A stretch of 64,000 bases of DNA from Escherichia phage Gostya9. The notes below the pieces were generated by a model. It searched no databases. It worked only from the letters and a program-made list of their open reading frames with translations, and was not told where the DNA came from. The position numbers and the translations under genes were made by a program. Where the stretch lies: the sequence record NC_047979.1. One strand, written 5' to 3'. Of the stretch, positions 218 through 63,194 are shown piece by piece. Numbering within the stretch: the stretch's first letter is position 1; the number at the start of each line of letters is the position of its first letter.

Positions 218-727
218 TTATTCCCCTTCGTAGGTATCTTCAGGCCAATGTGATGGTTCACTATCTGCTGGTTTATACATTCTAGGTAGTGCTAATAGTG
301 AGAGAAAAGCTGGCTCACTAAAGTAGTGAGTATATTCTTTAAACTCTGAGAACCACTCAGTTACCTCTTGAATATCCTCTTCACAAGGTGAGAGAGTTTC
401 TATGGAACAGGTTGCACCCCTCTTAGGTTTGGTTTTATAATAGTCATCTAGTACTCTTTGAACCTTCTGTGCTGTTTCCTCAGCAGTTAAAGATTCATCA
501 CACTCTATACTATCTATCTCCTCTGCTAGATAGTCCGGCCATTCCTCTCCCTGACCTACTCCATCATAACGAATGACTGGCTGGCAGTCCTCATCACTAT
601 TTAGTGCATGTAGTTCCATATAATGGAACGTTTGGGCTATTACATCTAGCAGCAACTTTAGTTGCTCTTTTGAGGCTGTCCCTTCTTTGTACTTAATATA
701 GGCATTAGCTACTTTTGGATTAATCAT
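218..727 (-). CDS. Hypothetical early protein (169 aa), acidic
   Basis: Intact ORF with its own upstream promoter-like element and RBS (aaggat); no motif recognised. Confidence 0.5.
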
Positions 728-761
728 ATTCGTATTTATCCTTTGTTTATTAATTGAGTAT

Positions 762-790
762 ATTATATTTAAATTTCACTAAATAAGCAA
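762..790 (-). promoter_or_regulatory. Sigma70-type early promoter, TTGCTT-17-TATAAT on minus strand
   Basis: Reverse complement reads aaatttcatTTGCTTatttagtgaaatttaaaTATAATat; same family as the other early promoters in this window. Confidence 0.45.
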
Positions 791-828
791 ATGAAATTTA
801 AGTATAATAGCCCCGAAGGCTATTTAAA

Positions 829-4107: not shown

Positions 4108-4138
4108 TGATTTTCCTCTTTCTCACTATTTCAGGAAT

Positions 4139-4167
4139 ATTATAGCAAATCAGATAGCGATTAGCAA
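4139..4167 (-). promoter_or_regulatory. Early promoter TTGCTA-17-TGcTATAAT on minus strand, upstream of nrdB
   Basis: Reverse complement reads aaattttacTTGCTAatcgctatctgattTGCTATAAT; extended -10 and conserved A/T-rich -35 flank. Confidence 0.5.
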
Positions 4168-4180
4168 GTAAAATTTCAAA

Positions 4181-4212
4181 GAAAAAGGAGACCCGAAGAT
4201 CTCCTTATTTTT
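4181..4212 (-). terminator. Hairpin terminator between nrdA and nrdB
   Basis: aaggaga-cccgaaga-tctcctt stem-loop flanked by A/T runs on both sides. Confidence 0.45.
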
Positions 4213-6544: not shown

Positions 6545-6625
6545 TTGGTTTTCCTTTTTATGGTTATCAGAATTTAGGAAATAGTTTACTTTATTCTCAG
6601 TCATTTGGCAAATAAAATTTTCTGA

Positions 6626-7649: not shown

Positions 7650-7716
7650 TCCTATAGTGTACTTCGCTTCTAACAGAGGATCAACAAAAAGATCTTGTTT
7701 ATCAACTTACAAATAT

Positions 7717-7745
7717 ATTATACCAGTATATATAGTAAAAAGCAA
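7717..7745 (-). promoter_or_regulatory. Early promoter with extended -10 on minus strand, upstream of phoH
   Basis: Reverse complement reads aaaattgtagTTGCTTtttactatatatacTGGTATAAT. Confidence 0.5.
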
Positions 7746-7882
7746 CTACAATTTTAAATAAGCCTATGATATTGCATTTAAATAAAAAATTTGCTTGCTT
7801 ATAAAGGTAGAAATATGATACTAGATAATCATTTATTTATACGCGAAATATTACAGTATTAGATGGCGAAAGAAAAATTTAA

Positions 7883-7911
7883 TTGACATAGTGGGTAATA
7901 TTTAGTATAAT
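7883..7911 (+). promoter_or_regulatory. Consensus sigma70 promoter TTGACA-17-TATAAT upstream of nrdD
   Basis: Exact consensus hexamers with 17-bp spacer, followed by a ~130-nt leader before the nrdD ATG at 8045. Confidence 0.6.
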
Positions 7912-8044
7912 AAGTGTAAAAATTCTGAGGAGAAAACTAACCCACAGTAACTACTGTAAAGAGTAGAACTGTCAGTACAGAAGTTTTAACGGGGTATAGA
8001 GGTCCTCGGTACTGTAGCTACAAAATTTATAGAGGAAATAATTA

Positions 8045-9878: not shown

Positions 9879-9912
9879 AGCCAGGTTGCTAGTCGACCTG
9901 GCTTTTATTTTA
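9879..9912 (+). terminator. Rho-independent terminator after nrdD
   Basis: agccaggt / acctggct stem followed by tttatttt. Confidence 0.6.
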
Positions 9913-9913
9913 T

Positions 9914-9942
9914 TTGCTTTCAGCTAAAAATATATGTATAAT
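9914..9942 (+). promoter_or_regulatory. Early promoter TTGCTT-17-TATAAT
   Basis: Followed by the conserved ATAGATTTATAAATTTGAGGAGG initial transcribed region and RBS. Confidence 0.55.
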
Positions 9943-9971
9943 AGATTTATAAATTTGAGGAGGTAGGAATT

Positions 9972-10352
9972 ATGGCTTTAAAACCGTATATAGTGGAGTC
10001 TACGTGTGGTGGTTTCCACCTGGGTGTGGATGATATTGCTGAGGCTGTCTTTGCTGCCACAGGTGATTACTCTCATATAGAGGGTGCTGGATACCCCACC
10101 GTTATTGGTGATTGGGTGGAAACAAATCTAGATGTATCGCCTTATAACCCGTATTGCTTGTTTGATGAAGACAGAGATGAAGTAAAATGTAATCTTGAAT
10201 TTGTGTATAATAGAGTGTTAAAAGTATACCAACGTAGTCCCGAGGGATACGAAGATATTACTTGGAGTATTAAACAGTATCTTAAAGATGTATACTCTAG
10301 TTTTTCTGACGAAGGCCTAGAAACAGTTGCAGTGGAGTTTAATAATGACTAA
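9972..10352 (+). CDS. Hypothetical early protein (126 aa)
   Basis: ATG with strong gaggagg RBS immediately downstream of the promoter. Confidence 0.6.
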   Translation: MALKPYIVESTCGGFHLGVDDIAEAVFAATGDYSHIEGAGYPTVIGDWVETNLDVSPYNPYCLFDEDRDEVKCNLEFVYNRVLKVYQRSPEGYEDITWSIKQYLKDVYSSFSDEGLETVAVEFNND

Positions 10353-12949: not shown

Positions 12950-12972
12950 TTTTTATTAGCTGAACTCTGATT

Positions 12973-13000
12973 ACCGAGTCATTTTGGCTCGGTTTTCTCT
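12973..13000 (+). terminator. Rho-independent terminator
   Basis: accgag / ctcggt stem followed by tttctct. Confidence 0.45.
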
Positions 13001-13040
13001 ATGCTCAAAGACACTGGTAGCAGCATCCGGAAAATTTTAC

Positions 13041-13069
13041 TTGCATGATGCCCAAAATCTTGATATAAT
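13041..13069 (+). promoter_or_regulatory. Early promoter TTGCAT-17-TGaTATAAT with no ORF behind it for about 600 nt
   Basis: aaaattttacTTGCATgatgcccaaaatctTGATATAATatttatattgaattgagagac; downstream 13070-13666 has no ORF of 60 aa or more on either strand. Confidence 0.5.
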
Positions 13070-13666
13070 ATTTATATTGAATTGAGAGACATTAGTAAAA
13101 ATTGATTTTGCTAATTTTTCTTAGTGAAGCTGACAAGGGATTTACGGCGAGAGGAATCGATGACCCGTAAATAGCTGCATAAGGTACGTTGCTAGAGCTT
13201 TACGAAAAAGTTTTTTCTTGTTTACAATCCGCGATACGGAACAGTTAGGCTGCCCCATTAAGGGTTGTTTTAACTGTTACGTGTTAGTTTTTAAACAACT
13301 AATTAATAGAATACTTAGCGATCTGCGTCCCATAGGAACCCTGGTAAGGCCTCGAAGCAACCTAGTATGAGGTGGTTGTGAAGTGAGATGGGAGGAGTGA
13401 AAAACTACCGAGACGTGATTCTGTAAGTTATATTGCATCTAGTATGAGCTAGTATATGAAGCATTAGGTGAGCAAATCTGGCTTAGCGGCCATCCTCAAG
13501 GATTTGTGCGGTATAATGAGGCAGCAGCGCAGCGTGAAAGTGGAAGTTGCCACCCCACTTCAGTATTTGCAATTAATTTGTTGAGAAATTGACAGTAACA
13601 GTTGTTCTATTCTTTCTGAATAGTCCTAAAGAAAACTTATTTCATTTCCAACACAGGAGTATTGTT

Positions 13667-16456
13667 GTGTTTTCAATCCTACAAGGTCATGCAGGATTTC
13701 ATCGCGATTTAGCCACGGGCAATTGGCGAGAAGTTAAAGCAGAAGATTATCTTTTTGCTAAAAGATTTTCCTCAAAGCATCCTGAAGGTAAACCAGCTTC
13801 AATGCCCTTCAAGTTTGATGTAATTGACGAAGTTGATCCTCAAACCCTAGTAGAAATGCTCCCTCTTATGAGACGTTTAACGTCTGACCCTCATATCGTT
13901 GCGGTACGAGGTCGATGTCTTGCACCTAAAAATAATGTGCGGCGTAAGAAGGGCAACTTTAATGTATCTAATCCTAGTAATATTATTGCTATGGACGTGG
14001 ATGGTATTGTAGATACAGGTGGTTGTAACAAGTTTGATCTTGTTGGCATGGCTCGACATATTATTAGGATGTTAAATAGTATTAGTGAGGATATGTTTCC
14101 TCTTGATGCAGGGTTTATTGCTCATGCATCGTCTTCGGCTGGGCTAAAACCAGGTATCCGAATGCACTTAATACTAGAATCTAATGTTAAAGTAACTCAG
14201 GGTCAAATCAAGTTCTTATTTACATCTATCAACGAAAGTAGTAGACAAAAGTATGGCTTTGATATTGCCGACTTAGCTTATTACTCTTCCGTACAGCTCC
14301 ATTATTTTGCAGATCCTCTATTTATTGATGGTATAGTTGATCCGTTTAAAGCGGAGGGTGCTTCACGTCTGGTATTTGTTAAGGGTTCTAAAGTAAATTT
14401 ACCTAATAATCTAGTTGACTATGAAACAACTAGAGGAGAGTTTAAAGAGGAATTCTACTCTTTACTCGATCAAATTAAAGGTAAAAAAGCTGCCTCTGAT
14501 AAAGTAGAGGAAACTATCAGTGAGCTAGAAGAGGCTGATGATGGGGTATACTTACGTATTATTCCAAAGCTATATCACCGAGCGTTAGAGGATGGGGTAG
14601 ATTTTGGTTGGCTAGAAAAAGAAATCCGCCCAGCTTTATCAGAATATATTGCAACTAAAGATAATAGCCGTAATATTCAAGACTACTTTAACAACGGTCG
14701 AAAACAGGCTCTGAAAGCATTTGTTAATAATTCTAAACGTGATATACCCGATGTTTTAAAAGGTATTCCGCTTAAAAAGCTAGAAACTAATTCACTAGAG
14801 ACCGACAACTTCTTGAAATTAAATACTGTACCACCAGAAGGCTATATGACTTTTGTAAAAGCAAGTCTAGGTACAGGTAAAACCACGGCGGTTGTGCGTT
14901 GGCTGGATTCAGGAGTTATTAAAGGTAATTTCTTAGCAGTTACCAACACTAGAGCACTGGTATCTTCAAATGCTAAGAAATTTAGTGCAGGACAATACGA
15001 TAAGTCTGTAGATATGCTTAATTTTAAGCGTGGTGCTATTGACCGTATGTCCACAACCATTCACTCTTTGCATAAGTTTAAGAGTTTTATTGGTCAAATT
15101 GATGCAATCTTTATAGATGAATGTGATGCAGTAATGAATGACCTATTATTCGCCCCGGTTGTTAAGCAACGTCGTGAGTGTATTCAGGTTCTTCGTGATA
15201 TTCTTGCAACTGCAAAAATCATTATACTATCCGATGGTGATATTAGTGCCGAGACGATTGAAGCATATGGTTCTTTGATTGAGTTCGATAAACCAGTTGC
15301 ATTCTATAATCATCACCGTAAGATGCTGTCAAAAGCTCATGCTTATGAGTTCCCTGATGAGTCCAGTATTTGGGTTGCACTTCAGACTTCTCTAGAGATG
15401 GGTGAGAAATCTATTCTAGTATCTGATTGTGGCCCTGATGAGCTGAATGAGAAGGGTATGGCACTACGTCGTAATACTGGTGCATTAGTTAAAGAAATCC
15501 ATTCAAACTCCACTTCAGATGTGGATATTCGACGTATTCTGGATTATACAACTAATGAGCTAATTGATCAACAAATTGATTGCTTATTATGTAGTCCATC
15601 CGTAACGAGTGGTGTTGACTTTAACTATTTCGATAATGTATTTGTTATTACTAGAACCAGTAATCAGGCGCCAAACATGCGTTTTCAAGCAATCAGGCGC
15701 GACCGTGGTGCTCAGAATATCTATTATTTTATTGATAAATCCACTAGTGGATTCTCTGCGGGTTCTGAACAATATAATATCGATGAAGGTTGGCTGGAGT
15801 TAGCACAGCAATTATATGCACGTCGCAGGGAGCTGGAGTCTAGGAACTATACTAGTACTTTACGTTATTACTTGCTTGATCAGGGTGCAACTATTGATAT
15901 TTTCAGTGAAAGCTGGGGAACTATTGAAGGTGCTGGTAAAGAATACACAGAAGAGCGAATCAAAGCTATTCTACATTCAACTCCTGATTATTGTGCTCCA
16001 CGTCATGCGGATGCGTATGAGGCTAAACTACTTATTGTTCGCTATTATCATCTTGAGTCTATTAAAGATGTAACAGTTGAGCATGTTGAACAATATATCA
16101 AAGATAAGCCGAATGATCGAGCTGCATTCTTCCATAAGATGCACGAGATGTTCTGGGAAGATATTAAGAAGTGTTCAAATGTGACCATTAAACCATTCAT
16201 AGAAGCTCTGAAAGGTAAGAAGAAAGATTTCTTCCTTAAAACAGGTCAGAGTGCTAACCCAAAATATGCTAGAATGTATCTTGGTATGATGGGTATTGGT
16301 AAAGATATGAACACGGAGAATATCGTAGACTGGTATAGAACCTACTGCAAAATCGAATGTATGCCAATTCCTTTCAAATTCATGACAGAAGAAGAGAAAG
16401 CTATGGCAGAAGAAGCAATGTCAGAGCTAGGTGCTAGAAATGACAGTGAAGAATAA
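13667..16456 (+). CDS. Large replication ATPase, origin-binding-helicase-like
   Basis: Walker A KASLGTGKTTAVV and Walker B IFIDECDAV in the middle of a roughly 930-aa protein. Start placed at GTG 13667 (aggag RBS 7 nt upstream); the track begins at TTG 13589, so the start is uncertain. Confidence 0.6.
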   Translation: MFSILQGHAGFHRDLATGNWREVKAEDYLFAKRFSSKHPEGKPASMPFKFDVIDEVDPQTLVEMLPLMRRLTSDPHIVAVRGRCLAPKNNVRRKKGNFNVSNPSNIIAMDVDGIVDTGGCNKFDLVGMARHIIRMLNSISEDMFPLDAGFIAHASSSAGLKPGIRMHLILESNVKVTQGQIKFLFTSINESSRQKYGFDIADLAYYSSVQLHYFADPLFIDGIVDPFKAEGASRLVFVKGSKVNLPNNLVDYETTRGEFKEEFYSLLDQIKGKKAASDKVEETISELEEADDGVYLRIIPKLYHRALEDGVDFGWLEKEIRPALSEYIATKDNSRNIQDYFNNGRKQALKAFVNNSKRDIPDVLKGIPLKKLETNSLETDNFLKLNTVPPEGYMTFVKASLGTGKTTAVVRWLDSGVIKGNFLAVTNTRALVSSNAKKFSAGQYDKSVDMLNFKRGAIDRMSTTIHSLHKFKSFIGQIDAIFIDECDAVMNDLLFAPVVKQRRECIQVLRDILATAKIIILSDGDISAETIEAYGSLIEFDKPVAFYNHHRKMLSKAHAYEFPDESSIWVALQTSLEMGEKSILVSDCGPDELNEKGMALRRNTGALVKEIHSNSTSDVDIRRILDYTTNELIDQQIDCLLCSPSVTSGVDFNYFDNVFVITRTSNQAPNMRFQAIRRDRGAQNIYYFIDKSTSGFSAGSEQYNIDEGWLELAQQLYARRRELESRNYTSTLRYYLLDQGATIDIFSESWGTIEGAGKEYTEERIKAILHSTPDYCAPRHADAYEAKLLIVRYYHLESIKDVTVEHVEQYIKDKPNDRAAFFHKMHEMFWEDIKKCSNVTIKPFIEALKGKKKDFFLKTGQSANPKYARMYLGMMGIGKDMNTENIVDWYRTYCKIECMPIPFKFMTEEEKAMAEEAMSELGARNDSEE

Positions 16457-16673
16457 AAAATGGGAAACAAGGAAGTTTCCAGTAAAAGAACGTAAAGTTC
16501 CCATTTATGATACTTCGGAGAAGCTATGTAGGGTGGTACCGCACAGATTAGCTGGCATCCCTAACATATCCGAGTGGCTACTTAAACAACGGAGGACTAG
16601 CGTATCCCTTCGCATAGGGTTTGAGTTAGATAAAGTATATGCTGAACTTTCTTCTTTGCTCAAAGAATCATAA
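16431..16673 (+). CDS. Hypothetical small protein (80 aa)
   Basis: ORF overlapping the 3' end of the upstream gene; no clear RBS. Confidence 0.25.
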   Translation: MLEMTVKNKKWETRKFPVKERKVPIYDTSEKLCRVVPHRLAGIPNISEWLLKQRRTSVSLRIGFELDKVYAELSSLLKES

Positions 16674-16682
16674 AAAATTTAT

Positions 16683-16711
16683 TTGCATAGTTCAAAAAAT
16701 TTCTGTATAAT
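16683..16711 (+). promoter_or_regulatory. Strong early promoter, T5 PN25-like
   Basis: tcataaaaaatttaTTTGCATagttcaaaaaatttcTGTATAATagattcataaatttgagagaggagtt; from TTTCTGTATAAT onward this matches the T5 PN25 promoter as I recall it. Confidence 0.65.
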
Positions 16712-16742
16712 AGATTCATAAATTTGAGAGAGGAGTTTAAAT

Positions 16743-17447
16743 ATGGCTGGTTCTCGCAGAAAGAAACATATCCATGAAATCCCGGATGAAGTCTTTAAAA
16801 AGGTTATAGAGCATCTGGAGAACGGCGGTACTAAGAAAGCAGCATGTGAAATGCTCGGCGTATCATCCAACCCAACTATGGAAAGGATGATAGAAGAGTG
16901 GCAAGATCGCCAAATTCAAGTTGCCGAGATGAAGAAAAAGAAACGTGGTACACTCATTGAAGGCATCGAGTTAGCTAACGTTATTGAACAGTATTTATCT
17001 GGTGATTCTTTTGAAGAGATTGCCGATCGTAATTACCGCTCTGTAGCAATGGTTAAATCTGTTCTGGAACGATATGGTGCTCTACTTCGTTTGAACGATA
17101 TTGTAGATCCATTGAATCCACCAATTATTCCTGACGATGCTGTAGCAGAAGAATTTGAGGTAGGTGAGCTTGTTTGGGTTCCTGGATACCAGTGTATCGG
17201 TGAAATCAAAAAAGCAATGGATAATCCTGTTGGTTGTTACCGTGTATGGCTTCTATCAGAAGGCAAACAACAGAACGTTCATTATATGAATTACGAGCTG
17301 GCTTCTGTTAAACATCTGGAAAAGCTAGGGGTTGACGTAAAATCTCTGGGGTATAAATGGTCTCGGGAAGAAGTTATCACACTGATTAACGAAGCTGTTA
17401 AGGCCGCCCTGAAACTTGATAAAGAAAAAGGAAAACGCCGTGAGTAA
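16743..17447 (+). CDS. Hypothetical early protein with N-terminal HTH-like segment
   Basis: First gene behind the PN25-like promoter; GGTKKAACEMLGVSSNPTMERM resembles a helix-turn-helix. Confidence 0.55.
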   Translation: MAGSRRKKHIHEIPDEVFKKVIEHLENGGTKKAACEMLGVSSNPTMERMIEEWQDRQIQVAEMKKKKRGTLIEGIELANVIEQYLSGDSFEEIADRNYRSVAMVKSVLERYGALLRLNDIVDPLNPPIIPDDAVAEEFEVGELVWVPGYQCIGEIKKAMDNPVGCYRVWLLSEGKQQNVHYMNYELASVKHLEKLGVDVKSLGYKWSREEVITLINEAVKAALKLDKEKGKRRE

Positions 17448-17691: not shown

Positions 17692-17708
17692 CTACTTAAA
17701 AATTTCAG

Positions 17709-17737
17709 TTGCTTAATCCTACAATTCTTGATATAAT
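17709..17737 (+). promoter_or_regulatory. Early promoter TTGCTT-17-TGaTATAAT
   Basis: aatttcagTTGCTTaatcctacaattctTGATATAAT. Confidence 0.5.
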
Positions 17738-17794
17738 ATTCTCATAGTTTGAAAGAACTATTCTGTTTAATTCTTAATTAAGGAAATATAAAAT

Positions 17795-18205
17795 ATGACT
17801 ACTCCAACTCAGTGGACTGATGAACTGTTTGAAAAAATGTCTTCCGAATACGTTGCTCGTATGGAGCAATTCCCAGAGGATGAACGTCCGAGTGTTAGCA
17901 TGGAAATTGTTAGTGAAATTGCCCAGGAAAATGGTGTAACTCCGAACGGTTTTCGTATGAAGCTGACTAAAGCAGGTTTGTATATCAAGAAAGCTGCTGG
18001 CTCCGCTTCTAAATCTAGTGCATCTACTGGAGAAAAAGCTTCCGGTGGTTCTCGTACCTCCAAAGCCCAGGCCCATGCGGATCTTCGTTCAGCATTCTCT
18101 GATGCTGGCTTAGCACCAGATTTTCTGGATGATGCAATTATCGACAAACTGACTGGTAAAGCGGCTGCTCATCTGGCTGAAGCAATCCGAGCTATCACTA
18201 AGTAA
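17795..18205 (+). CDS. Hypothetical early protein (136 aa), optimal-codon rich
   Basis: aaggaaatataaaatATG RBS and start; codon usage resembles highly expressed E. coli genes. Confidence 0.6.
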   Translation: MTTPTQWTDELFEKMSSEYVARMEQFPEDERPSVSMEIVSEIAQENGVTPNGFRMKLTKAGLYIKKAAGSASKSSASTGEKASGGSRTSKAQAHADLRSAFSDAGLAPDFLDDAIIDKLTGKAAAHLAEAIRAITK

Positions 18206-18558: not shown

Positions 18559-18867
18559 ATGAGCGATCAGGTAAACCAAAACTATGAAGGACACGTTGAT
18601 GATCAGTCAATCCTTCTATGGGAAAAAGAAGGGGAACAAATAAGATTGACAGTATCTGAATTTCGTGGGAATCTATACATGGGAATTAGGTATTGGCTCC
18701 AGGATATTACTGGAGAATGGTTTCCAACGAAATCCGGCTTCTCTTTTCCGTACACTCTAGAAACTACTTCGCAGCTATTCTATGCTTTTACGCAAATCCT
18801 TAGTGAATCTGAGGTTCTTGCCGAAGTACAGAAACGAGCTGAAGAACTCAAAGCCAAGAATGCCTAG
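18559..18867 (+). CDS. Hypothetical protein (102 aa)
   Basis: ORF followed by a terminator hairpin. Confidence 0.45.
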   Translation: MSDQVNQNYEGHVDDQSILLWEKEGEQIRLTVSEFRGNLYMGIRYWLQDITGEWFPTKSGFSFPYTLETTSQLFYAFTQILSESEVLAEVQKRAEELKAKNA

Positions 18868-18883
18868 TTCTTGGCTTTTTCTT
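18853..18883 (+). terminator. Rho-independent terminator
   Basis: gccaagaa-tgcctag-ttcttggc followed by tttttc. Confidence 0.6.
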
Positions 18884-18894
18884 TATAAATGTAT

Positions 18895-18923
18895 TTGCTT
18901 TCAACTCAGTTTTGTTATATAAT
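18895..18923 (+). promoter_or_regulatory. Early promoter TTGCTT-17-TATAAT
   Basis: gtatTTGCTTtcaactcagttttgttaTATAATatttatataaatt. Confidence 0.5.
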
Positions 18924-18954
18924 ATTTATATAAATTAATGAGAGATATAAATAA

Positions 18955-19926: not shown

Positions 19927-19976
19927 TACATAACCCTTTGCTACCCCTCTACCATATCGGAATTATAAAGTGGTTA

Positions 19977-20005
19977 TTGACATTTTCGCCGCTTAGGTAT
20001 ATACT
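19977..20005 (+). promoter_or_regulatory. Promoter TTGACA-17-TATACT inside the ligase split
   Basis: TTGACAttttcgccgcttaggtaTATACT. Confidence 0.4.
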
Positions 20006-20069
20006 ATTATCATTCAGTTGAGGGATAGAAAGTTATGGCGAGGGTAAGCAAAGTTAGTTAAAATTGTAG

Positions 20070-20098
20070 TTGCTAAATGCTTAAATACTTGCTATAAT
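20070..20098 (+). promoter_or_regulatory. Early promoter TTGCTA-17-TATAAT inside the ligase split
   Basis: aaaattgtagTTGCTAaatgcttaaatacttgcTATAATatttatataaattgataaggaag. Confidence 0.5.
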
Positions 20099-20125
20099 AT
20101 TTATATAAATTGATAAGGAAGAAAT

Positions 20126-23753: not shown

Positions 23754-24640
23754 GTCGAATAACAGAATTACTTGATCTTAAGGGAATTGAGTATAAAGAT
23801 ACTGGTGGAGATATTTTAATCTGTTGTCTAAATCCAGATCATGATGATAAACACCCAAGTTTGCGTATTGACCCTGAAACAGGTATTATGCACTGCTTGA
23901 GTTGTGGCTTCGGTAAAGGTATACCGAGCATTTACCATTATTTTAATGAGACTCAGTACCGACAGTCCCCAAGACTATCCCAAGTACGTAAAAAGATTTC
24001 AGAGATTAGAAATGGATCTACAAATCTTGCAATCCCAGAATCTGCTTTTCTTTTTGAAGGTGATTTCCGAGGTATCAGTTCTAAGACCTTAAAGAAATAT
24101 TTTGCTTTCCAACACCAAGAGGACTGGGAGGGCAGAATTGTATTCCCAATCACAGATGCTGTTGGACGCAATATCCTATTTTTGGGTCGTTCTATAAACA
24201 GTTCTGCCCCTCCTAAATACTTAGTAAAACCAAAACAAGTTTCACCACCAATTTTCCCTGTACGATATAATACTCCAGTTCTTATTCTAGTTGAAGGCAT
24301 CTTTGATATGCTGAAGCTAGAGGATAATGGTATAGACTATGCTTCCTGCTGTTTTGGTACACATCAGTTTACTTCCGATAACATTGCAGATAAGTTCAGT
24401 CCTTATATTATTGCCGGTGTAAAAGTTGTTGTTATCTTACTAGATAATGATGCTTCTGGTAATAAAGCTGCCCAGTCTCTAGCGAAGTTAATTCGTACAA
24501 AAACGCGTTTAACACCTGTAGTTGCTAACTTTCTTCTGCCTGAAGGTAAAGACCCTGGTGACTTAAATAAAGAAGAAGTCGATACGTTAGCAAAACGTAT
24601 TGAAATTTTAGTTGCTGAATCGCTTAAAGATTTGGTATAA
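23750..24640 (+). CDS. DNA primase (DnaG-like, Zn finger plus Toprim)
   Basis: CHC2 zinc finger CLNPDHDDKHPSLRIDPETGIMHCLSCG; Toprim acidic motifs (VEGIFDML, LLDNDASG). Confidence 0.8.
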   Translation: MSRITELLDLKGIEYKDTGGDILICCLNPDHDDKHPSLRIDPETGIMHCLSCGFGKGIPSIYHYFNETQYRQSPRLSQVRKKISEIRNGSTNLAIPESAFLFEGDFRGISSKTLKKYFAFQHQEDWEGRIVFPITDAVGRNILFLGRSINSSAPPKYLVKPKQVSPPIFPVRYNTPVLILVEGIFDMLKLEDNGIDYASCCFGTHQFTSDNIADKFSPYIIAGVKVVVILLDNDASGNKAAQSLAKLIRTKTRLTPVVANFLLPEGKDPGDLNKEEVDTLAKRIEILVAESLKDLV

Positions 24641-24641
24641 T
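24612..24641 (+). promoter_or_regulatory. Early promoter TTGCTG-18-TATAAT inside the 3' end of the primase gene
   Basis: aaattttagTTGCTGaatcgcttaaagatttggTATAATatattgg. Confidence 0.45.
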
Positions 24642-24702
24642 ATATTGGTAAGTTAGAGAAGAAACACTGAAGTTATACTTACTTACCAAGAGGAGATTAA
24701 AT

Positions 24703-27700
24703 TTGAAAATTGCAGTAGTTGATAAAGCTCTAAACAACACTCGTTATGATAAACATTTCCAGCTATACGGCGAGGAAGTTGATGTATTCCATATGTGTAA
24801 CGAGAAGTTATCCGGTCGTTTGCTCAAAAAGCATATTACTATCGGGACCCCGGAAAACCCATTTGACCCGAATGATTATGATTTTGTTATACTGGTAGGT
24901 GCCGAACCTTTCCTGTACTTTGCGGGTAAGAAAGGTATTGGTGATTATACTGGTAAACGTGTAGAGTATAATGGATATGCTAACTGGATTGCTAGTATCA
25001 GCCCAGCCCAGTTACACTTTAAACCTGAAATGAAACCAGTTTTTGATGCAACAGTAGAGAGTATCCACGATATTATCAATGGTCGTGAGAAGATTGCAAA
25101 AGCTGGTGATTACCGTCCTATTACTGACCCTGATGAGGCAGAAGAATATATCAAGATGGTGTATAATATGGTTATCGGACCTGTCGCATTCGACTCCGAA
25201 ACCTCAGCACTATACTGTCGAGATGGTTATCTGCTTGGTGTTTCTATTTCTCACCAAGAGTATCAGGGTGTATATATCGATTCTGATTGTCTCACAGAGG
25301 TTGCAGTATATTATCTCCAGAAAATTCTGGATAGTGAAAACCACATTATTGTTTTTCACAACTTGAAGTTTGATATGCACTTTTATAAGTACCATCTGGG
25401 ACTTACTTTTGATAAAGCACATAAAGAACGCAGGCTCCATGATACCATGTTGCAGCACTATGTTCTAGATGAACGTCGTGGTACTCATGGCTTGAAATCT
25501 CTAGCAATGAAGTATACCGATATGGGTGACTATGACTTCGAACTAGATAAGTTCAAAGATGATTACTGCAAAGCACATAAAATCAAGAAAGAAGATTTCA
25601 CCTATGATCTGATTCCGTTTGATATTATGTGGCCATATGCATGTCTTACTCACGATTCCCAAGTTCGGATGGCTTCAGGGAATTGGAAGACTATTGGGGA
25701 ACTTGTTCGCACCAAATCTACAGAAGCTGTAGTATCATTCAACGAGTCAACTGGGCAATTTGAGAACAAACCGATTACTGGATGGTATAAAAATGAACAT
25801 AAATCCAAGCAATGGAAGAAGTTAATAGTTAAATCTCAGCAAAGAAACTCTAAGGGTACTATTAATGGGCCAGTATTTACACCAGATCATAGGGTATTAA
25901 CTCAGAATGGATACATAGAAGTCCAAGATATTATTCCAGGACAGGATAAAATCCTAACTGAAGAACTTGCTTTACCATCTGATAGTAAGCAAGTATTAAT
26001 GGCATCCCTATTTGGGGATGGTGCTCTGGTATCTAGAAATAATTGGGGCGCGGGTCTACAACTGACACAGTCAGAAGCGCATAAAGAGTATCTAGATTTT
26101 AAGGCAGCCTCTCAAGTAGAAACACCAACTCTTAGTTCCTCTACAAAAGGAGATAAAAAAGCATATACGTATAGTTTCCCCTATACCTCGGAGTATTCTG
26201 ACTTATTCTCTACCTTAGAGGTACGAGATAATACTACAAAATATAAGTTAAAAATTACTAAGAAAAATCTAGAAGGGTTAGATGAAAAAGCACTAGCTAT
26301 TTGGTATCAAGATGATGGTAACCTGCCACAAGGAAACGCACGCATTTGGTCTAGAACAGTTGCTGATTGTAAAGAAGAGCAGCAAAATTTCATAGAATGG
26401 TGTAAAAATCTAGGCATTACAGCACGCTACCATAACGATGGAGAAAATAACCAGTTCTTTGTATTAGATAATGAAGAACTATTCCCTTTGATTGCTCCAT
26501 ATATGCATAGCTCTATGGCTTACAAGGTGCCAGAAAGATTCAAGCACTTAGTAGGAACAGGAACTTGGGATTTTTCAACATCTAAGTACTACTATGCAGA
26601 AGTGTATGGGGTTGAGGATTGGGTAGTTCCAGCCTCTAGAAGAGGTTACTCTACCAGTTGGTGTATAGATGTAAAAGATAACCATAACTTTGTAACTAAA
26701 GTTGGTGTAGTTCACAACTGTAAAGATACAGATGCTACCATACGTTTGCACAACTTCTTCTTACCAAAAATTGAGAAGAATGAAAAACTTTGCAGTCTAT
26801 ATTACGATGTTCTAATGCCTGGTTGTGTATTCCTACAGCGTGTCGAAGATCGTGGTGTACCTATCTCTATTGATCGTTTGAAAGAAGCTCAGTATCAATT
26901 GACTCATAATTTGAATAAAGCCCGTGAGAAACTGTATACTTATCCAGAAGTTAAACAGCTAGAACAAGATCAGAATGAAGCATTTAACCCGAACTCTGTT
27001 AAGCAGCTGCGTGTTCTTCTGTTCGATTATGTTGGTTTGACTCCAACTGGTAAGTTAACGGATACTGGTGCAGATTCTACGGATGCAGAAGCTCTGAATG
27101 AACTGGCTACGCAGCATCCAATTGCTAAAACTCTACTAGAGATTCGTAAGCTGACTAAGCTGATCTCTACTTATGTTGAGAAGATTCTTCTGAGTATTGA
27201 TGCAGATGGTTGCATTCGTACTGGTTTCCATGAACATATGACTACTTCTGGTCGTCTGAGTTCTTCTGGTAAACTGAACCTGCAACAGCTACCTCGTGAT
27301 GAATCTATCATTAAGGGTTGTGTAGTTGCACCACCTGGATACCGTGTAATCGCATGGGACTTAACAACTGCGGAAGTTTATTATGCTGCTGTTCTATCTG
27401 GTGATAGAAATATGCAACAAGTATTTATCAACATGAGAAATGAACCCGATAAATACCCTGACTTCCACTCTAACATCGCCCACATGGTATTTAAATTGCA
27501 ATGTGAACCTCGTGATGTTAAAAAGTTATTCCCAGCTCTGCGTCAAGCAGCTAAGGCAATTACCTTTGGTATTTTGTACGGTTCTGGCCCGGCTAAAGTA
27601 GCACATTCTGTTAACGAAGCATTGCTAGAACAAGCAGCCAAAACTGGGGAACCATTTGTTGAATGTACTGTTGCAGATGCTAAAGAGTACATTGAGACTT

Positions 27701-28347
27701 ACTTTGGTCAATTCCCACAGCTTAAGCGTTGGATTGATAAGTGCCACGATCAAATCAAGAATCATGGGTTTATCTATAGTCACTTTGGTCGTAAACGTCG
27801 TCTACATAATATCCACTCTGAAGACCGTGGCGTTCAGGGTGAAGAAATTCGTTCTGGGTTTAACGCAATCATTCAGTCTGCTTCTTCTGATAGTCTCCTT
27901 TTAGGTGCTGTAGATGCAGATAATGAGATCATTTCTCTTGGCCTAGAACAAGAGATGAAGATTGTTATGCTGGTTCATGACTCCGTAGTTGCTATTGTTC
28001 GTGAAGACTTGATTGATCAATACAATGAAATTCTGATTCGTAATATTCAGAAAGACCGTGGTATCAGTATTCCTGGCTGTCCGATTGGTATTGATTCAGA
28101 TTCTGAAGCTGGAGGTTCTCGTGACTATTCTTGTGGTAAGATGAAGAAACAGCACCCATCAATCGCTTGTATTGATGATGACGAATATACTCGTTACGTT
28201 AAAGAAATGCTTCTTGATTCTGAATTCGAGTATAAGAAATTAGCTGCAATGGATAAAGAGCATCCAGATCATAGCAAATACAAGGATGATAAGTTTATTG
28301 CTGTATGTAAGGATCTGGATAACGTGAAAAGGGTTCTCGGTGCTTAA
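24703..28347 (+). CDS. Family A DNA polymerase with 3'-5' exonuclease domain, interrupted in-frame by an intein
   Basis: Exo I VAFDSETSALY; pol motif B RQAAKAITFGILYGSG; motif C LVHDSVV. 1214 aa in total; 855 aa once the 359-aa intein is removed. TTG start with aagaggaga RBS. Confidence 0.9.
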   Translation: MKIAVVDKALNNTRYDKHFQLYGEEVDVFHMCNEKLSGRLLKKHITIGTPENPFDPNDYDFVILVGAEPFLYFAGKKGIGDYTGKRVEYNGYANWIASISPAQLHFKPEMKPVFDATVESIHDIINGREKIAKAGDYRPITDPDEAEEYIKMVYNMVIGPVAFDSETSALYCRDGYLLGVSISHQEYQGVYIDSDCLTEVAVYYLQKILDSENHIIVFHNLKFDMHFYKYHLGLTFDKAHKERRLHDTMLQHYVLDERRGTHGLKSLAMKYTDMGDYDFELDKFKDDYCKAHKIKKEDFTYDLIPFDIMWPYACLTHDSQVRMASGNWKTIGELVRTKSTEAVVSFNESTGQFENKPITGWYKNEHKSKQWKKLIVKSQQRNSKGTINGPVFTPDHRVLTQNGYIEVQDIIPGQDKILTEELALPSDSKQVLMASLFGDGALVSRNNWGAGLQLTQSEAHKEYLDFKAASQVETPTLSSSTKGDKKAYTYSFPYTSEYSDLFSTLEVRDNTTKYKLKITKKNLEGLDEKALAIWYQDDGNLPQGNARIWSRTVADCKEEQQNFIEWCKNLGITARYHNDGENNQFFVLDNEELFPLIAPYMHSSMAYKVPERFKHLVGTGTWDFSTSKYYYAEVYGVEDWVVPASRRGYSTSWCIDVKDNHNFVTKVGVVHNCKDTDATIRLHNFFLPKIEKNEKLCSLYYDVLMPGCVFLQRVEDRGVPISIDRLKEAQYQLTHNLNKAREKLYTYPEVKQLEQDQNEAFNPNSVKQLRVLLFDYVGLTPTGKLTDTGADSTDAEALNELATQHPIAKTLLEIRKLTKLISTYVEKILLSIDADGCIRTGFHEHMTTSGRLSSSGKLNLQQLPRDESIIKGCVVAPPGYRVIAWDLTTAEVYYAAVLSGDRNMQQVFINMRNEPDKYPDFHSNIAHMVFKLQCEPRDVKKLFPALRQAAKAITFGILYGSGPAKVAHSVNEALLEQAAKTGEPFVECTVADAKEYIETYFGQFPQLKRWIDKCHDQIKNHGFIYSHFGRKRRLHNIHSEDRGVQGEEIRSGFNAIIQSASSDSLLLGAVDADNEIISLGLEQEMKIVMLVHDSVVAIVREDLIDQYNEILIRNIQKDRGISIPGCPIGIDSDSEAGGSRDYSCGKMKKQHPSIACIDDDEYTRYVKEMLLDSEFEYKKLAAMDKEHPDHSKYKDDKFIAVCKDLDNVKRVLGA
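25642..26718 (+). mobile_element. Intein with LAGLIDADG homing endonuclease inside the DNA polymerase
   Basis: Block A CLTHDSQVRMASG begins at Cys; block B FTPDHRVL; two LAGLIDADG motifs (LMASLFGDGAL, LAIWYQDDGNL); blocks F/G VKDNHNFVTKVGVVHN followed by +1 Cys (CKDTDA). Confidence 0.85.
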
Positions 28348-28837: not shown

Positions 28838-30186
28838 AGGTTGTTATATCTAATAAAGCCTATTTCAAGCCCGATGATGAACTTTGGGATTATTGTAGTA
28901 AGCAAACCACTTACCACATAGAGACAATGACTAGTAAATACCCTATTATGTATAAGAATAGTGGTGTTGTTGCCAAAGAGATTAAGTGGATTCCTATTAC
29001 GCGTCTGGATTTACTAGATGCTAAAGGAATAAAATACGAATTAGTTGATAAACGCACGTTAGCTCCGGTAGATATACCAAAACCGTCGTTTAAACTGCGT
29101 GAAGAAGATCAGCTTCCAATATACGAAGAGTGCGATGATACCTGCATTATTAATGGTAAGCCTGGATTTGGTAAAACTATCCTAGCACTTGCACTTGCGT
29201 ATAAATTTGGCCAGAAAACTTTGGTAATCTGTACGAATACATCCATTCGTGAAATGTGGGCGGCGGAAGTTCGTAAATGGTTTGGGTTTGAACCGGGCAT
29301 CATAGGTTCTGGGAAATACAATATCGATCCACCAATTGTAGTCAGTAATATTCAAACAGTGAATAAGCATGCGAATAATCTTTCTAAAGTATTCGGTACT
29401 GTTATAGTTGATGAAGTTCACCATTGTGTAGCTACAACTTTCACTAACTTCCTAGAAATATCATGTGCTCGCTATAAAATTGGACTATCCGGCACACTAA
29501 AACGTAAGGATGGCTTGCAAGTTATGTTCAAAGATTTCTTTGGATATAAAATCTTTAGTCCTCCAGTTAATAATACTGTTGCTCCTACAATCCACAGGTA
29601 CTCCGTACCAGTTGAATTGTCTGGAAACCAAAACGTACCGTGGGCATTACGTGCTAACGATGTGTATAACCATCCTGAATATCGAGGGGCTATTATAAAC
29701 CTAGCACATTTATATGTGAATATGGGGCATAAAGTACTCATTGTAAGTGATAGAACAGAGTTAATCCAAACAGTACTAGAAGCTCTTACGCAGCGGGGTG
29801 TCACAACCTATGAAATTATAGGGGCAACCCACTTAGATGACCGATTAAAAATTCAGGAAGATATAGCAAAAGGTGGGCCTTGTGTACTTGCAGCAGCTCA
29901 AAGTATCTTCTCTGAAGGTATTTCCCTTAATGAGCTATCTTGTTTAATAATGGGAAGCCTCATTAATAATGAATCTCTCATTGAACAGCTTGCAGGCCGT
30001 GTTCAACGTATTGTCGATGGTAAACTCGACCCTATTGTTGTAGATCTAATTATGAAAGGTGGCACTGGACTAAGACAGGCTTCTGGACGTATGGCAGTAT
30101 ACCGTAACAATGGGTGGAAAACTATTACTATGACTCCTGAGAAAGCAGTTCAATTAGCCAAAATTGCATTTGGCAACAGCTCATAA
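28834..30186 (+). CDS. DEAH-box DNA helicase (superfamily 2)
   Basis: Walker A NGKPGFGKTILA; DEAH box VIVDEVHH; helicase C-terminal domain. Confidence 0.8.
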   Translation: MKVVISNKAYFKPDDELWDYCSKQTTYHIETMTSKYPIMYKNSGVVAKEIKWIPITRLDLLDAKGIKYELVDKRTLAPVDIPKPSFKLREEDQLPIYEECDDTCIINGKPGFGKTILALALAYKFGQKTLVICTNTSIREMWAAEVRKWFGFEPGIIGSGKYNIDPPIVVSNIQTVNKHANNLSKVFGTVIVDEVHHCVATTFTNFLEISCARYKIGLSGTLKRKDGLQVMFKDFFGYKIFSPPVNNTVAPTIHRYSVPVELSGNQNVPWALRANDVYNHPEYRGAIINLAHLYVNMGHKVLIVSDRTELIQTVLEALTQRGVTTYEIIGATHLDDRLKIQEDIAKGGPCVLAAAQSIFSEGISLNELSCLIMGSLINNESLIEQLAGRVQRIVDGKLDPIVVDLIMKGGTGLRQASGRMAVYRNNGWKTITMTPEKAVQLAKIAFGNSS

Positions 30187-30198
30187 ATGATGTATAAT
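30170..30198 (+). promoter_or_regulatory. Early promoter TTGGCA-17-TGTATAAT (first copy of a tandem pair)
   Basis: tgTATAATatatacataaatttgagagagaaag, followed by a hairpin (ttcgga...tccgaa). Confidence 0.45.
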
Positions 30199-30269
30199 AT
30201 ATACATAAATTTGAGAGAGAAAGTTTCGGATTGATAAGAAAGTCCGAAGCAGAAAAATAAAAATTTTAG

Positions 30270-30299
30270 TTGCTAAATTCTCTTGAAATCTAGTATAAT
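30270..30299 (+). promoter_or_regulatory. Early promoter TTGCTA-18-TATAAT (second copy)
   Basis: aaaattttagTTGCTAaattctcttgaaatctagTATAATatatacataaattcgaggag. Confidence 0.5.
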
Positions 30300-30406
30300 A
30301 TATACATAAATTCGAGGAGAAAACAAAAATTAAATTCTTCGATTATGAAAGGCTATATTTACTAGCTAGAGGAAATTCCGACCTAATTATTAAGCTATTC
30401 AAAAGA

Positions 30407-35651: not shown

Positions 35652-36094
35652 TTAAAATTAAGTTAACTCATCCAGATTGTATGCCTAAGATTGGTTCCGA
35701 AGATGCCGCAGGTATGGATCTGCGAGCATTCTTTGGTACTAACCCTGCAGCGGATTTACGTGCTATTGCACCAGGCAAATCCCTAATGATTGACACCGGT
35801 GTCGCGGTAGAAATTCCGCGAGGTTGGTTCGGTTTGGTGGTTCCGCGTAGTTCTTTAGGAAAGCGCCATTTGATGATCGCAAACACCGCAGGAGTGATCG
35901 ACTCAGACTATCGTGGTACTATTAAGATGAACCTTTATAACTACGGTTCTGAAATTCAAACTCTGGAGAATTTTGAAAGACTTTGCCAACTAGTGGTACT
36001 ACCACATTACTCAACTCATAACTTTAAAATCGTTGACGAACTAGGGGAGACTAATCGTGGGGAAGGCGGATTTGGAAGTTCAGGAAGTAAATAA
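35648..36094 (+). CDS. dut: dUTPase
   Basis: dUTPase motifs AGMDLRA and GVIDSDYRG; 148 aa. Confidence 0.85.
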   Translation: MIKIKLTHPDCMPKIGSEDAAGMDLRAFFGTNPAADLRAIAPGKSLMIDTGVAVEIPRGWFGLVVPRSSLGKRHLMIANTAGVIDSDYRGTIKMNLYNYGSEIQTLENFERLCQLVVLPHYSTHNFKIVDELGETNRGEGGFGSSGSK

Positions 36095-36323: not shown

Positions 36324-36358
36324 AAAACCCCAGTGGACAAAATCCACTGGGGTTTTAT
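36324..36358. terminator. Bidirectional terminator where the early (plus) and late (minus) blocks converge
   Basis: 14-bp perfect stem aaaaccccagtgga / tccactggggtttt with loop caaaa; A-run on one side and T-run on the other. Confidence 0.7.
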
Positions 36359-63033: not shown

Positions 63034-63194
63034 AAAACCTCAAAATTTCACTTGTCAACAAGTCTTTATTTTTGTATACTATAAGTATAAATTAAAAAGG
63101 TATCCAAGTAAACTAAATTTTTTATTTCTTGGACGGTATACTGGCAGAAACCACTATGTAAGAAAAGTAGAAGTCCTTCTAGGAGTCCACAATC

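Follow-up and report, generated by a model that had tools for sequence, protein, structure and literature searches.

A family of T5-type early promoters with a conserved initial transcribed region, including a P-N25 ortholog, in a T5-like phage genome

The window analysed here, by which we mean the whole stretch of 64,000 nucleotides, carries twelve listed sites that are very likely to be strong early-class promoters of the T5 type, read by the host RNA polymerase with σ70, and one of them, at 16683-16737, is very likely the ortholog of T5 P-N25. Both the family and its conserved block are already known and annotated in T5, and the finding is in this sense correct but ordinary. Its use lies in placing the window as a T5-like phage, with transcription units that can be marked by transfer from T5; it has little significance beyond annotation.

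By sequence, the window can be assigned to a T5-like coliphage (Demerecviridae, Tequintavirus). All 468 phage records matched by the 2-kb stretch around the PN25 site are T5-like too, the best match being Escherichia phage DT57C (97.7%), with T5 at 96%. Gene order in the first 36 kb is that of the T5 early region: RNase H, thyA, frd, nrdB, nrdA and phoH follow one another on the minus strand, and nrdD, the D2 helicase, ligase, primase, polymerase, D10-D15 and dUTPase on the plus strand. All twelve sites lie between 0.7 and 30.3 kb, amid these genes of nucleotide metabolism and replication, and at every site the promoter points in the direction of the downstream genes, the flip coinciding with a divergent point at 7745 (minus strand) and 7883 (plus strand). 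The original count of at least 14 promoters is reasonable, as we count 15 of σ70 type in the early region: the twelve listed plus a P-K28b ortholog (19977), a T5P29 ortholog (6611, minus strand) and an nrdD promoter (7883), all three absent from the original list. They are given here in map order, with predicted start sites (+1).

736-804, minus strand: RNase H promoter, positional counterpart of T5P27; -35 at 790-785, -10 at 767-762, +1 at 755; precedes an RNase H-like ORF (727..218)
4113-4181, minus strand: T5P28 ortholog, before nrdB; -35 at 4167-4162, TGn and -10 at 4144-4139, +1 at 4132
6557-6625, minus strand: T5P29 ortholog, before nrdA; weaker (TTGCCA, TAAACT)
7691-7759, minus strand: T5P30 ortholog, before phoH, on the minus-strand side of the divergent point; -35 at 7745-7740, TGn and -10 at 7722-7717, +1 at 7710
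7869-7937, plus strand: nrdD promoter with the consensus TTGACA-17-TATAAT, on the plus-strand side of the divergent point; positional counterpart of a putative promoter in AY692264
9900-9968, plus strand: T5P31 ortholog ('repeat c copy 5'); -35 at 9914-9919, -10 at 9937-9942, +1 at 9949; ORF at 9972
13027-13095, plus strand: T5P32 ortholog; -35 at 13041-13046, TGn and -10 at 13064-13069, +1 at 13076
16669-16737, plus strand: P-N25 ortholog (T5P33; contains T5 'repeat c'), by match to the T5 feature; A/T block at 16669-16682, -35 TTGCAT at 16683-16688, 17-bp spacer, -10 TATAAT at 16706-16711, +1 (A) at 16718, transcribed sequence ATAAATTTGAGAGAGGAGTT, start codon at 16743
17695-17763, plus strand: P-N26 ortholog (T5P34); -35 at 17709-17714, TGn and -10 at 17732-17737, +1 at 17744; leader of 51 nt, ORF start at 17795
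18881-18949, plus strand: T5P35 ortholog ('repeat b copy 4'); -35 at 18895-18900, -10 at 18918-18923, +1 at 18930; precedes ligA (18955)
19963-20031, plus strand: P-K28b ortholog (T5P36), of a different type and in tandem with P-K28a; TTGACA at 19977-19982, TATACT at 20000-20005
20056-20124, plus strand: P-K28a ortholog (T5P37, 'repeat b'), 100% identical to T5 over 275 bp; -35 at 20070-20075, TGn and -10 at 20093-20098, +1 at 20105; precedes ligB
24598-24667, plus strand: DNA-polymerase promoter, ortholog of the putative promoter upstream of pol in AY692264; -35 at 24612-24617, 18-bp spacer, TGn and -10 at 24636-24641, +1 at 24648; 55-nt leader, pol start at 24703
30156-30224, plus strand: promoter-type site equal to T5 'repeat c copy 7'; -35 TTGGCA at 30170-30175, inside the 3' end of the D10 helicase ORF, -10 at 30193-30198, +1 at 30205
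30256-30325, plus strand: T5P38 ortholog, 100 bp 3' of the 30170 site and in tandem with it, as in T5; -35 at 30270-30275, 18-bp spacer, -10 at 30294-30299, +1 at 30306

All twelve sites of the original prediction were recovered at their coordinates with a neutral search pattern, TTGNNN-N16-18-TATAAT, which occurs 18 times in the window; 4.4 occurrences were expected, and none of 200 Markov shuffles had more than 12. Loose scans of this A/T-rich window with generic σ70 consensus patterns gave no enrichment (43 hits versus 56.7 expected, and 61 versus 54.6); the signal therefore rests on family-specific features and on the correspondence to T5. The twelve sites were aligned on the -10 element, and information content was determined per position. 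TATAAT is exact in all of them and is separated from the -35 by the claimed 17-18 bp (17 bp at ten sites, 18 bp at two). The -35 element is TTGCT-like, with TTG in 12/12 and TTGC in 11/12 sites, and the predicted A/T-rich block 5' of it (around -43) has the consensus AAAATTTTA, at 1.0-1.7 bits per position. In this alignment AAAATTTnA and TTGC reach 1.0-2.3 bits per position and TATAATA reaches 1.7 bits, and between +1 and +11 most positions hold 0.8-1.4 bits. The discriminator is A/T-rich and of the ATATT type, with A at -6 in every site and T at -5 in ten, and holds 5.9 bits compared with 1.9±0.5 in shuffles. The seventh base after the -10, our predicted +1, is a purine in 12/12 sites and is preceded by a pyrimidine in 11. 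The -10 had also been described as often extended by TG. Six of the twelve sites do carry a canonical TGn, but the PN25 ortholog does not: its TG at -14/-13 (TGTATAAT) lies one base nearer the hexamer than the canonical TGn at -15/-14.

Comparison with published T5 early promoters bore out the family, as 11 of the 12 sites have a counterpart among the promoter features of T5 in GenBank. Two T5 records were compared. AY692264 has 'promoter P-N 25', 'P-N 26', 'P-K 28a/b', 'P-H 207' and many entries labelled 'putative promoter'; AY587007 numbers the counterparts of the window's promoters T5P27-T5P38 as 'putative early promoter', with T5P33 and 'repeat c copy 6' together representing P-N25. Nine sites aligned to T5 at 91-100% when used as flanked queries, the site at 4167 was assigned by position beside its alignment, and for the minus-strand site at 790 position was the only criterion. 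The promoter at 24612 is probably T5 'Ppol', an equation that is ours and absent from PMC7472727. Set against the T5 early set (P-N26, P-K28a/b, P-H207, Ppol; T5P6-T5P38), the window is a different mosaic genome, and its promoters for nrdD and RNase H do not have the sequence of the corresponding T5 ones.

The T5 counterpart of the 30170 site ('repeat c copy 7') has full promoter architecture as well and bears a promoter label in neither T5 record, and is thus one probable promoter lacking promoter annotation in both. Within 20 nt of the 30205 start lies a stable hairpin (30225-30248, -9.9 kcal/mol, z = -3.76) that has no U-run; as a smaller possibility, site and hairpin could give rise to a short non-coding RNA.

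The PN25 sequence cited in the original prediction is right: the 38-mer TTTCTGTATAATAGATTCATAAATTTGAGAGAGGAGTT equals T5 'promoter P-N 25' at 38 of 38 positions. It is present once in the window, although at 16700-16737 and not, as first given, at 16699-16736, an offset of one base. The region around the PN25 site is 95% identical to that of T5 'promoter P-N 25' over 275 bp, with the same gene (234 aa) downstream. The two promoters occupy the same genomic position and share the A/T block, the -10, the discriminator and the first 20 transcribed bases; they are identical from -16 to +20, and differences are confined to the last two bases of the -35 (TTGCAT in the window, TTGCTT in T5) and to the spacer. 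There, the window has AGTTCAAAAAATTTCTG, an allele common to other DT57C-like phages, where T5 P-N25 has TCAGGAAAATTTTTCTG. Upstream of P-N25, T5 carries an HNH endonuclease gene that is missing from the window. Among T5-like phages, the last -35 bases and the spacer (about 16686-16705) come in several distinct alleles, e.g. TTTCAGGAAAATTTT, ATAGTTCAAAAAATT and ATCCTGCAAAAATTT, and on their downstream side the sequence is invariant. This pattern suggests that alleles are exchanged, or constraint is relaxed, in the spacer only.

Conservation of the initial transcribed region, another element of the original prediction, proved real. In the alignment of the 12 sites a motif approximating (A/G)TAAATT(T)GAGA begins 7 nt after the -10, and positions +1 to +14 hold 12.8 bits compared with 4.4±0.7 in shuffled sequences (maximum 7.5; none of 5000 shuffles reached the observed value). 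A control stretch, +21 to +34, gave 5.0 bits against this same 14-nt null, which was taken from +1 to +14. Positions +1 to +7 are 90% A/T, +8 to +20 are 80% purine, and C makes up 4% of the bases from +1 to +20. The literal motif first proposed, ATAAATTTGAGRGG, was found with up to two mismatches at four promoters (9949, 16718, 30205 and 30306) among six matches in total, versus 1.8 expected, but the rest of the family falls outside it. With four promoters only, it was rejected as too narrow a descriptor of the family. A leave-one-out test on the 20 nt after the -10 (discriminator plus transcribed block), in which each site was ranked among 128,000 positions, placed 9 of the 12 in the top 20 and the minus-strand site at 7745 at rank 36, while those at 790 and 4167 are devoid of the motif. 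The transcribed motif is common to about 9-10 of the 12 sites, and the two minus-strand exceptions imply that it is not required for family membership.

Constraint on this region is also seen among orthologs. Variable alignment columns were counted over distinct T5-like sequences, 27 for PN25 and 26 for PN26:

-10 and discriminator: PN25, 0 of 12; PN26, 0 of 12
+1 to +20: PN25, 2 of 20; PN26, 0 of 20
Spacer: PN25, 8 of 17; PN26, 7 of 17
Following coding region: PN25, 30 of 87 (D3); PN26, 16 of 106

The spacers of PN25 and PN26 have thus drifted while -10 to +20 stayed nearly invariant, which argues for constraint on -10 to +20 and is in line with published biochemistry. The motif is retained in relatives with only 68-74% identity in the D3 protein (CATAAATTCGAGAGAGGA; TATAAATTGAATAAGGA) and fades in more distant ones.

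These comparisons bear on a rival explanation, in which duplication or recombination has recently dispersed a promoter cassette as neutral repeats and no selection acts on the transcribed part. Indeed, the block from -10 to about +15 that was flagged in the window is annotated in AY587007 as dispersed 'repeat c' (TGTATAATAGATTCATAAATTTGAGAGAG) and 'repeat b' (TATAATATTTATATAAATTRATRAG); type c is represented in the window at 9914, 16683 and 30170 and type b at 18895 and 20070, the other sites being more distant variants. Moreover, some pairs are alike in the spacer too (T5 PN25 and 9914, 85.7% over 56 nt; 20070 and 7745, 78.6% over 70 nt). On average, however, the spacers of the window's copies agree at only 7.2 of 17 positions next to conserved flanking blocks, so that likeness is concentrated in functional blocks and not evenly spread as by recent duplication. 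Likewise, the ortholog spacers exist in several alleles beside an invariant -10 to +20. Neutral repetition is therefore improbable, and we favour selection on the conserved blocks, including the transcribed one.

Such selection could act on translation instead of transcription. In six promoters a start codon follows 22-35 nt after +1, and the GAGG there doubles as a Shine-Dalgarno sequence (GAGG or GGAG within the purine stretch), as expected if conservation of the transcribed region reflected nothing but the translation start of the first gene and its Shine-Dalgarno sequence. As sole cause this was refuted by the six promoters whose first gene lies at least 50 nt downstream, which are equally well conserved (14.3 bits versus 7.1±1.1; reached by 0 of 5000 shuffles). 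In addition, the best-conserved part of the motif, (A/G)TAAATT at +1 to +7, is no ribosome-binding site. We consider translation initiation as the only source of the conservation very improbable. Conservation at promoters that have no nearby start codon, together with the invariance among orthologs, fits the view of the original prediction that the transcribed region is under selection beyond the polymerase contact sites.

The same prediction had offered a shared 5' leader as an alternative target of selection, and this part was not supported. For all 12 sites the initial 45 nt of the predicted transcript were folded, and a few leaders did form structures, i.e. 30205-30249 (z = -3.76) and 13076-13120 (z = -2.43), as might be expected if a structured leader governed RNA stability or processing. 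However, the 12 leaders have no fold in common, most leave their first ~10 nt unpaired, and all but two of the 12 z-scores are unremarkable. Searches of the promoter leaders matched no family in Rfam and found no tRNA with ARAGORN. Control through a common RNA structure is thus extremely improbable, and selection on transcription itself is the reading we retain. Downstream of the promoter at 13041, about 500 nt (13076 to ~13590, plus strand) between the T5P32 ortholog and the D2/origin-binding helicase gene have no annotated gene, and the same gap is seen in the T5 and DT57C annotations; the gap had no Rfam match, and a repeat search of 12950-13700 revealed no notable repeat.

The conserved elements probably work together as follows. 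The A/T block (about -46 to -36) would serve as a UP-like element and would contact the α subunit of the polymerase. Sigma would bind through the TTGCT-type -35 and the perfect TATAAT -10, 17-18 bp apart, aided at half of the sites by TGn. The A/T-rich discriminator would lead to a start at the seventh base after the -10, with a pyrimidine at -1 and a purine at +1, and an initial transcribed sequence that is first A/T-rich, then purine-rich, and poor in C would allow rapid promoter escape.

Published work on T5 provides the background for this scheme. The host σ70 polymerase transcribes all three T5 gene classes, and a discriminator of the ATATT type is common to early promoters and constitutes the main difference between early and late ones (Klimuk et al., 2020; PMC7472727). 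Primer extension in T5 identified Ppol as early and P-G25 and P-J5 as late (PMC7472727); the early primer-extension kinetics described there are those of Ppol and P15A. Our literature search found no genome-wide transcription start-site map of T5. Promoter escape is commonly studied with the transcribed sequence of N25 as a standard model: the native A/T-rich sequence gives fast escape, an 'anti' variant is ~10-fold less productive, and productive yield correlates with purine content (PMC12464699, PMC5961368). These two papers credit the control of escape by the N25 transcribed sequence to Kammerer 1986 and the Hsu laboratory, and name Kammerer et al. (1986) as the first to show > 10-fold effects of the transcribed sequence in vivo. 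The mechanistic idea, that the transcribed region acts on promoter escape, is thus already established for N25 itself, and the escape role can reasonably be extended from N25 to the whole promoter family. By analogy with T5, the window's promoters would be used by E. coli σ70 polymerase early in infection, with the transcribed sequence promoting escape.

A late promoter of the window is instructive for comparison. The ortholog of T5 P-G25 is found at 45529-45501 on the minus strand (within 45543-45470), with one mismatch in the spacer. Its leader and start read ATTAAAGAGGAGAAATTAACTATGAGA, which we take to be the 'RBSII' ribosome-binding site of the pQE/pDS expression vectors. P-G25 shares with the early set its σ70 type, the A/T block and an exact TATAAT; it differs in its TTGATA -35 and in having no ATAAATTTGA-type transcribed motif, and it belongs to the late class by T5 primer extension (PMC7472727).

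The lack of the motif in this late promoter would also suit a different function of the conserved block: instead of signalling escape, the stretch between the discriminator and about +14 would chiefly be bound or recognized by a phage-encoded regulator for shutting off the early class. Candidates for the regulator are gpT5.026 or an early DNA-binding protein. In the presence of gpT5.026, polymerase binding to an N25 non-template-strand oligonucleotide (-12 to +2) was ~8-fold weaker, and loss of gpT5.026 resulted in more early and less late transcript (Klimuk et al., 2020; PMC7472727). Such a target would agree with the discriminator being the main difference between early and late T5 promoters (PMC7472727) and with the strong constraint on the block in orthologs. 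On the other hand, a factor recognizing +1 to +14 is purely putative, the in vitro effects of gpT5.026 are small (PMC7472727), and the N25 escape effect is seen with pure E. coli polymerase, in the absence of any phage factor (PMC12464699); in addition, two family members have no motif. We regard a regulator target as unlikely. Just as tentatively, the discriminator-to-~+14 block ('repeat b/c') might constitute a group cis element for early shut-off, acting via polymerase modified by gpT5.026 or another early protein; if so, it would be a handle on the T5 early-to-late switch. Promoter escape remains our preferred function for the transcribed block.

With regard to the organization of the early region, terminator-like hairpins occur in the window at about twice the expected frequency, and several lie directly 5' of promoters: 9879-9903 (before 9914), 12973-12993 (before 13041), 18850-18878 (before 18895) and, on the minus strand, 4206-4185 (before 4167). 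Because a terminator hairpin stands just 5' of many promoters, the early region appears to be split into short, separately driven transcription units. These would run leftward below ~7.75 kb and rightward above ~7.88 kb, several of them bounded by a terminator and then a promoter. A G+C-rich hairpin of 14-15 bp at 36324-36356 (both strands) has a terminator score on either strand; it is located just 3' of the dUTPase ORF (end at 36094), approximately where GC skew goes negative, and this suggests a convergent boundary between the early and late regions.

The DNA polymerase ORF (24703-28347, plus strand) encodes 1214 aa, compared with 855 aa in T5 and DT57C. In Pfam, the stretch separating the exonuclease from the polymerase domain contains a LAGLIDADG endonuclease domain (aa 430-578) and, as a weak match, an intein splicing domain (aa 323-672); the insert is present in only six phage records, one of which, SelmaRatti, annotates an intein, and T5 has no such intein in its polymerase gene. 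Between thyA and the RNase H promoter at 790, a minus-strand ORF (829-1602) encodes a 257-aa homing endonuclease of the GIY-YIG / I-TevI-like type, at a position where the T5 and DT57C annotations have no gene. Finally, far from the early block, a family-like promoter at 63038-63106 (plus strand) consists of AAAATTTCAC and TTGTCA-17-TATACT followed by ATAAATTAAAAAGG, and is a possible counterpart of the llp/oad intergenic promoters of T5.
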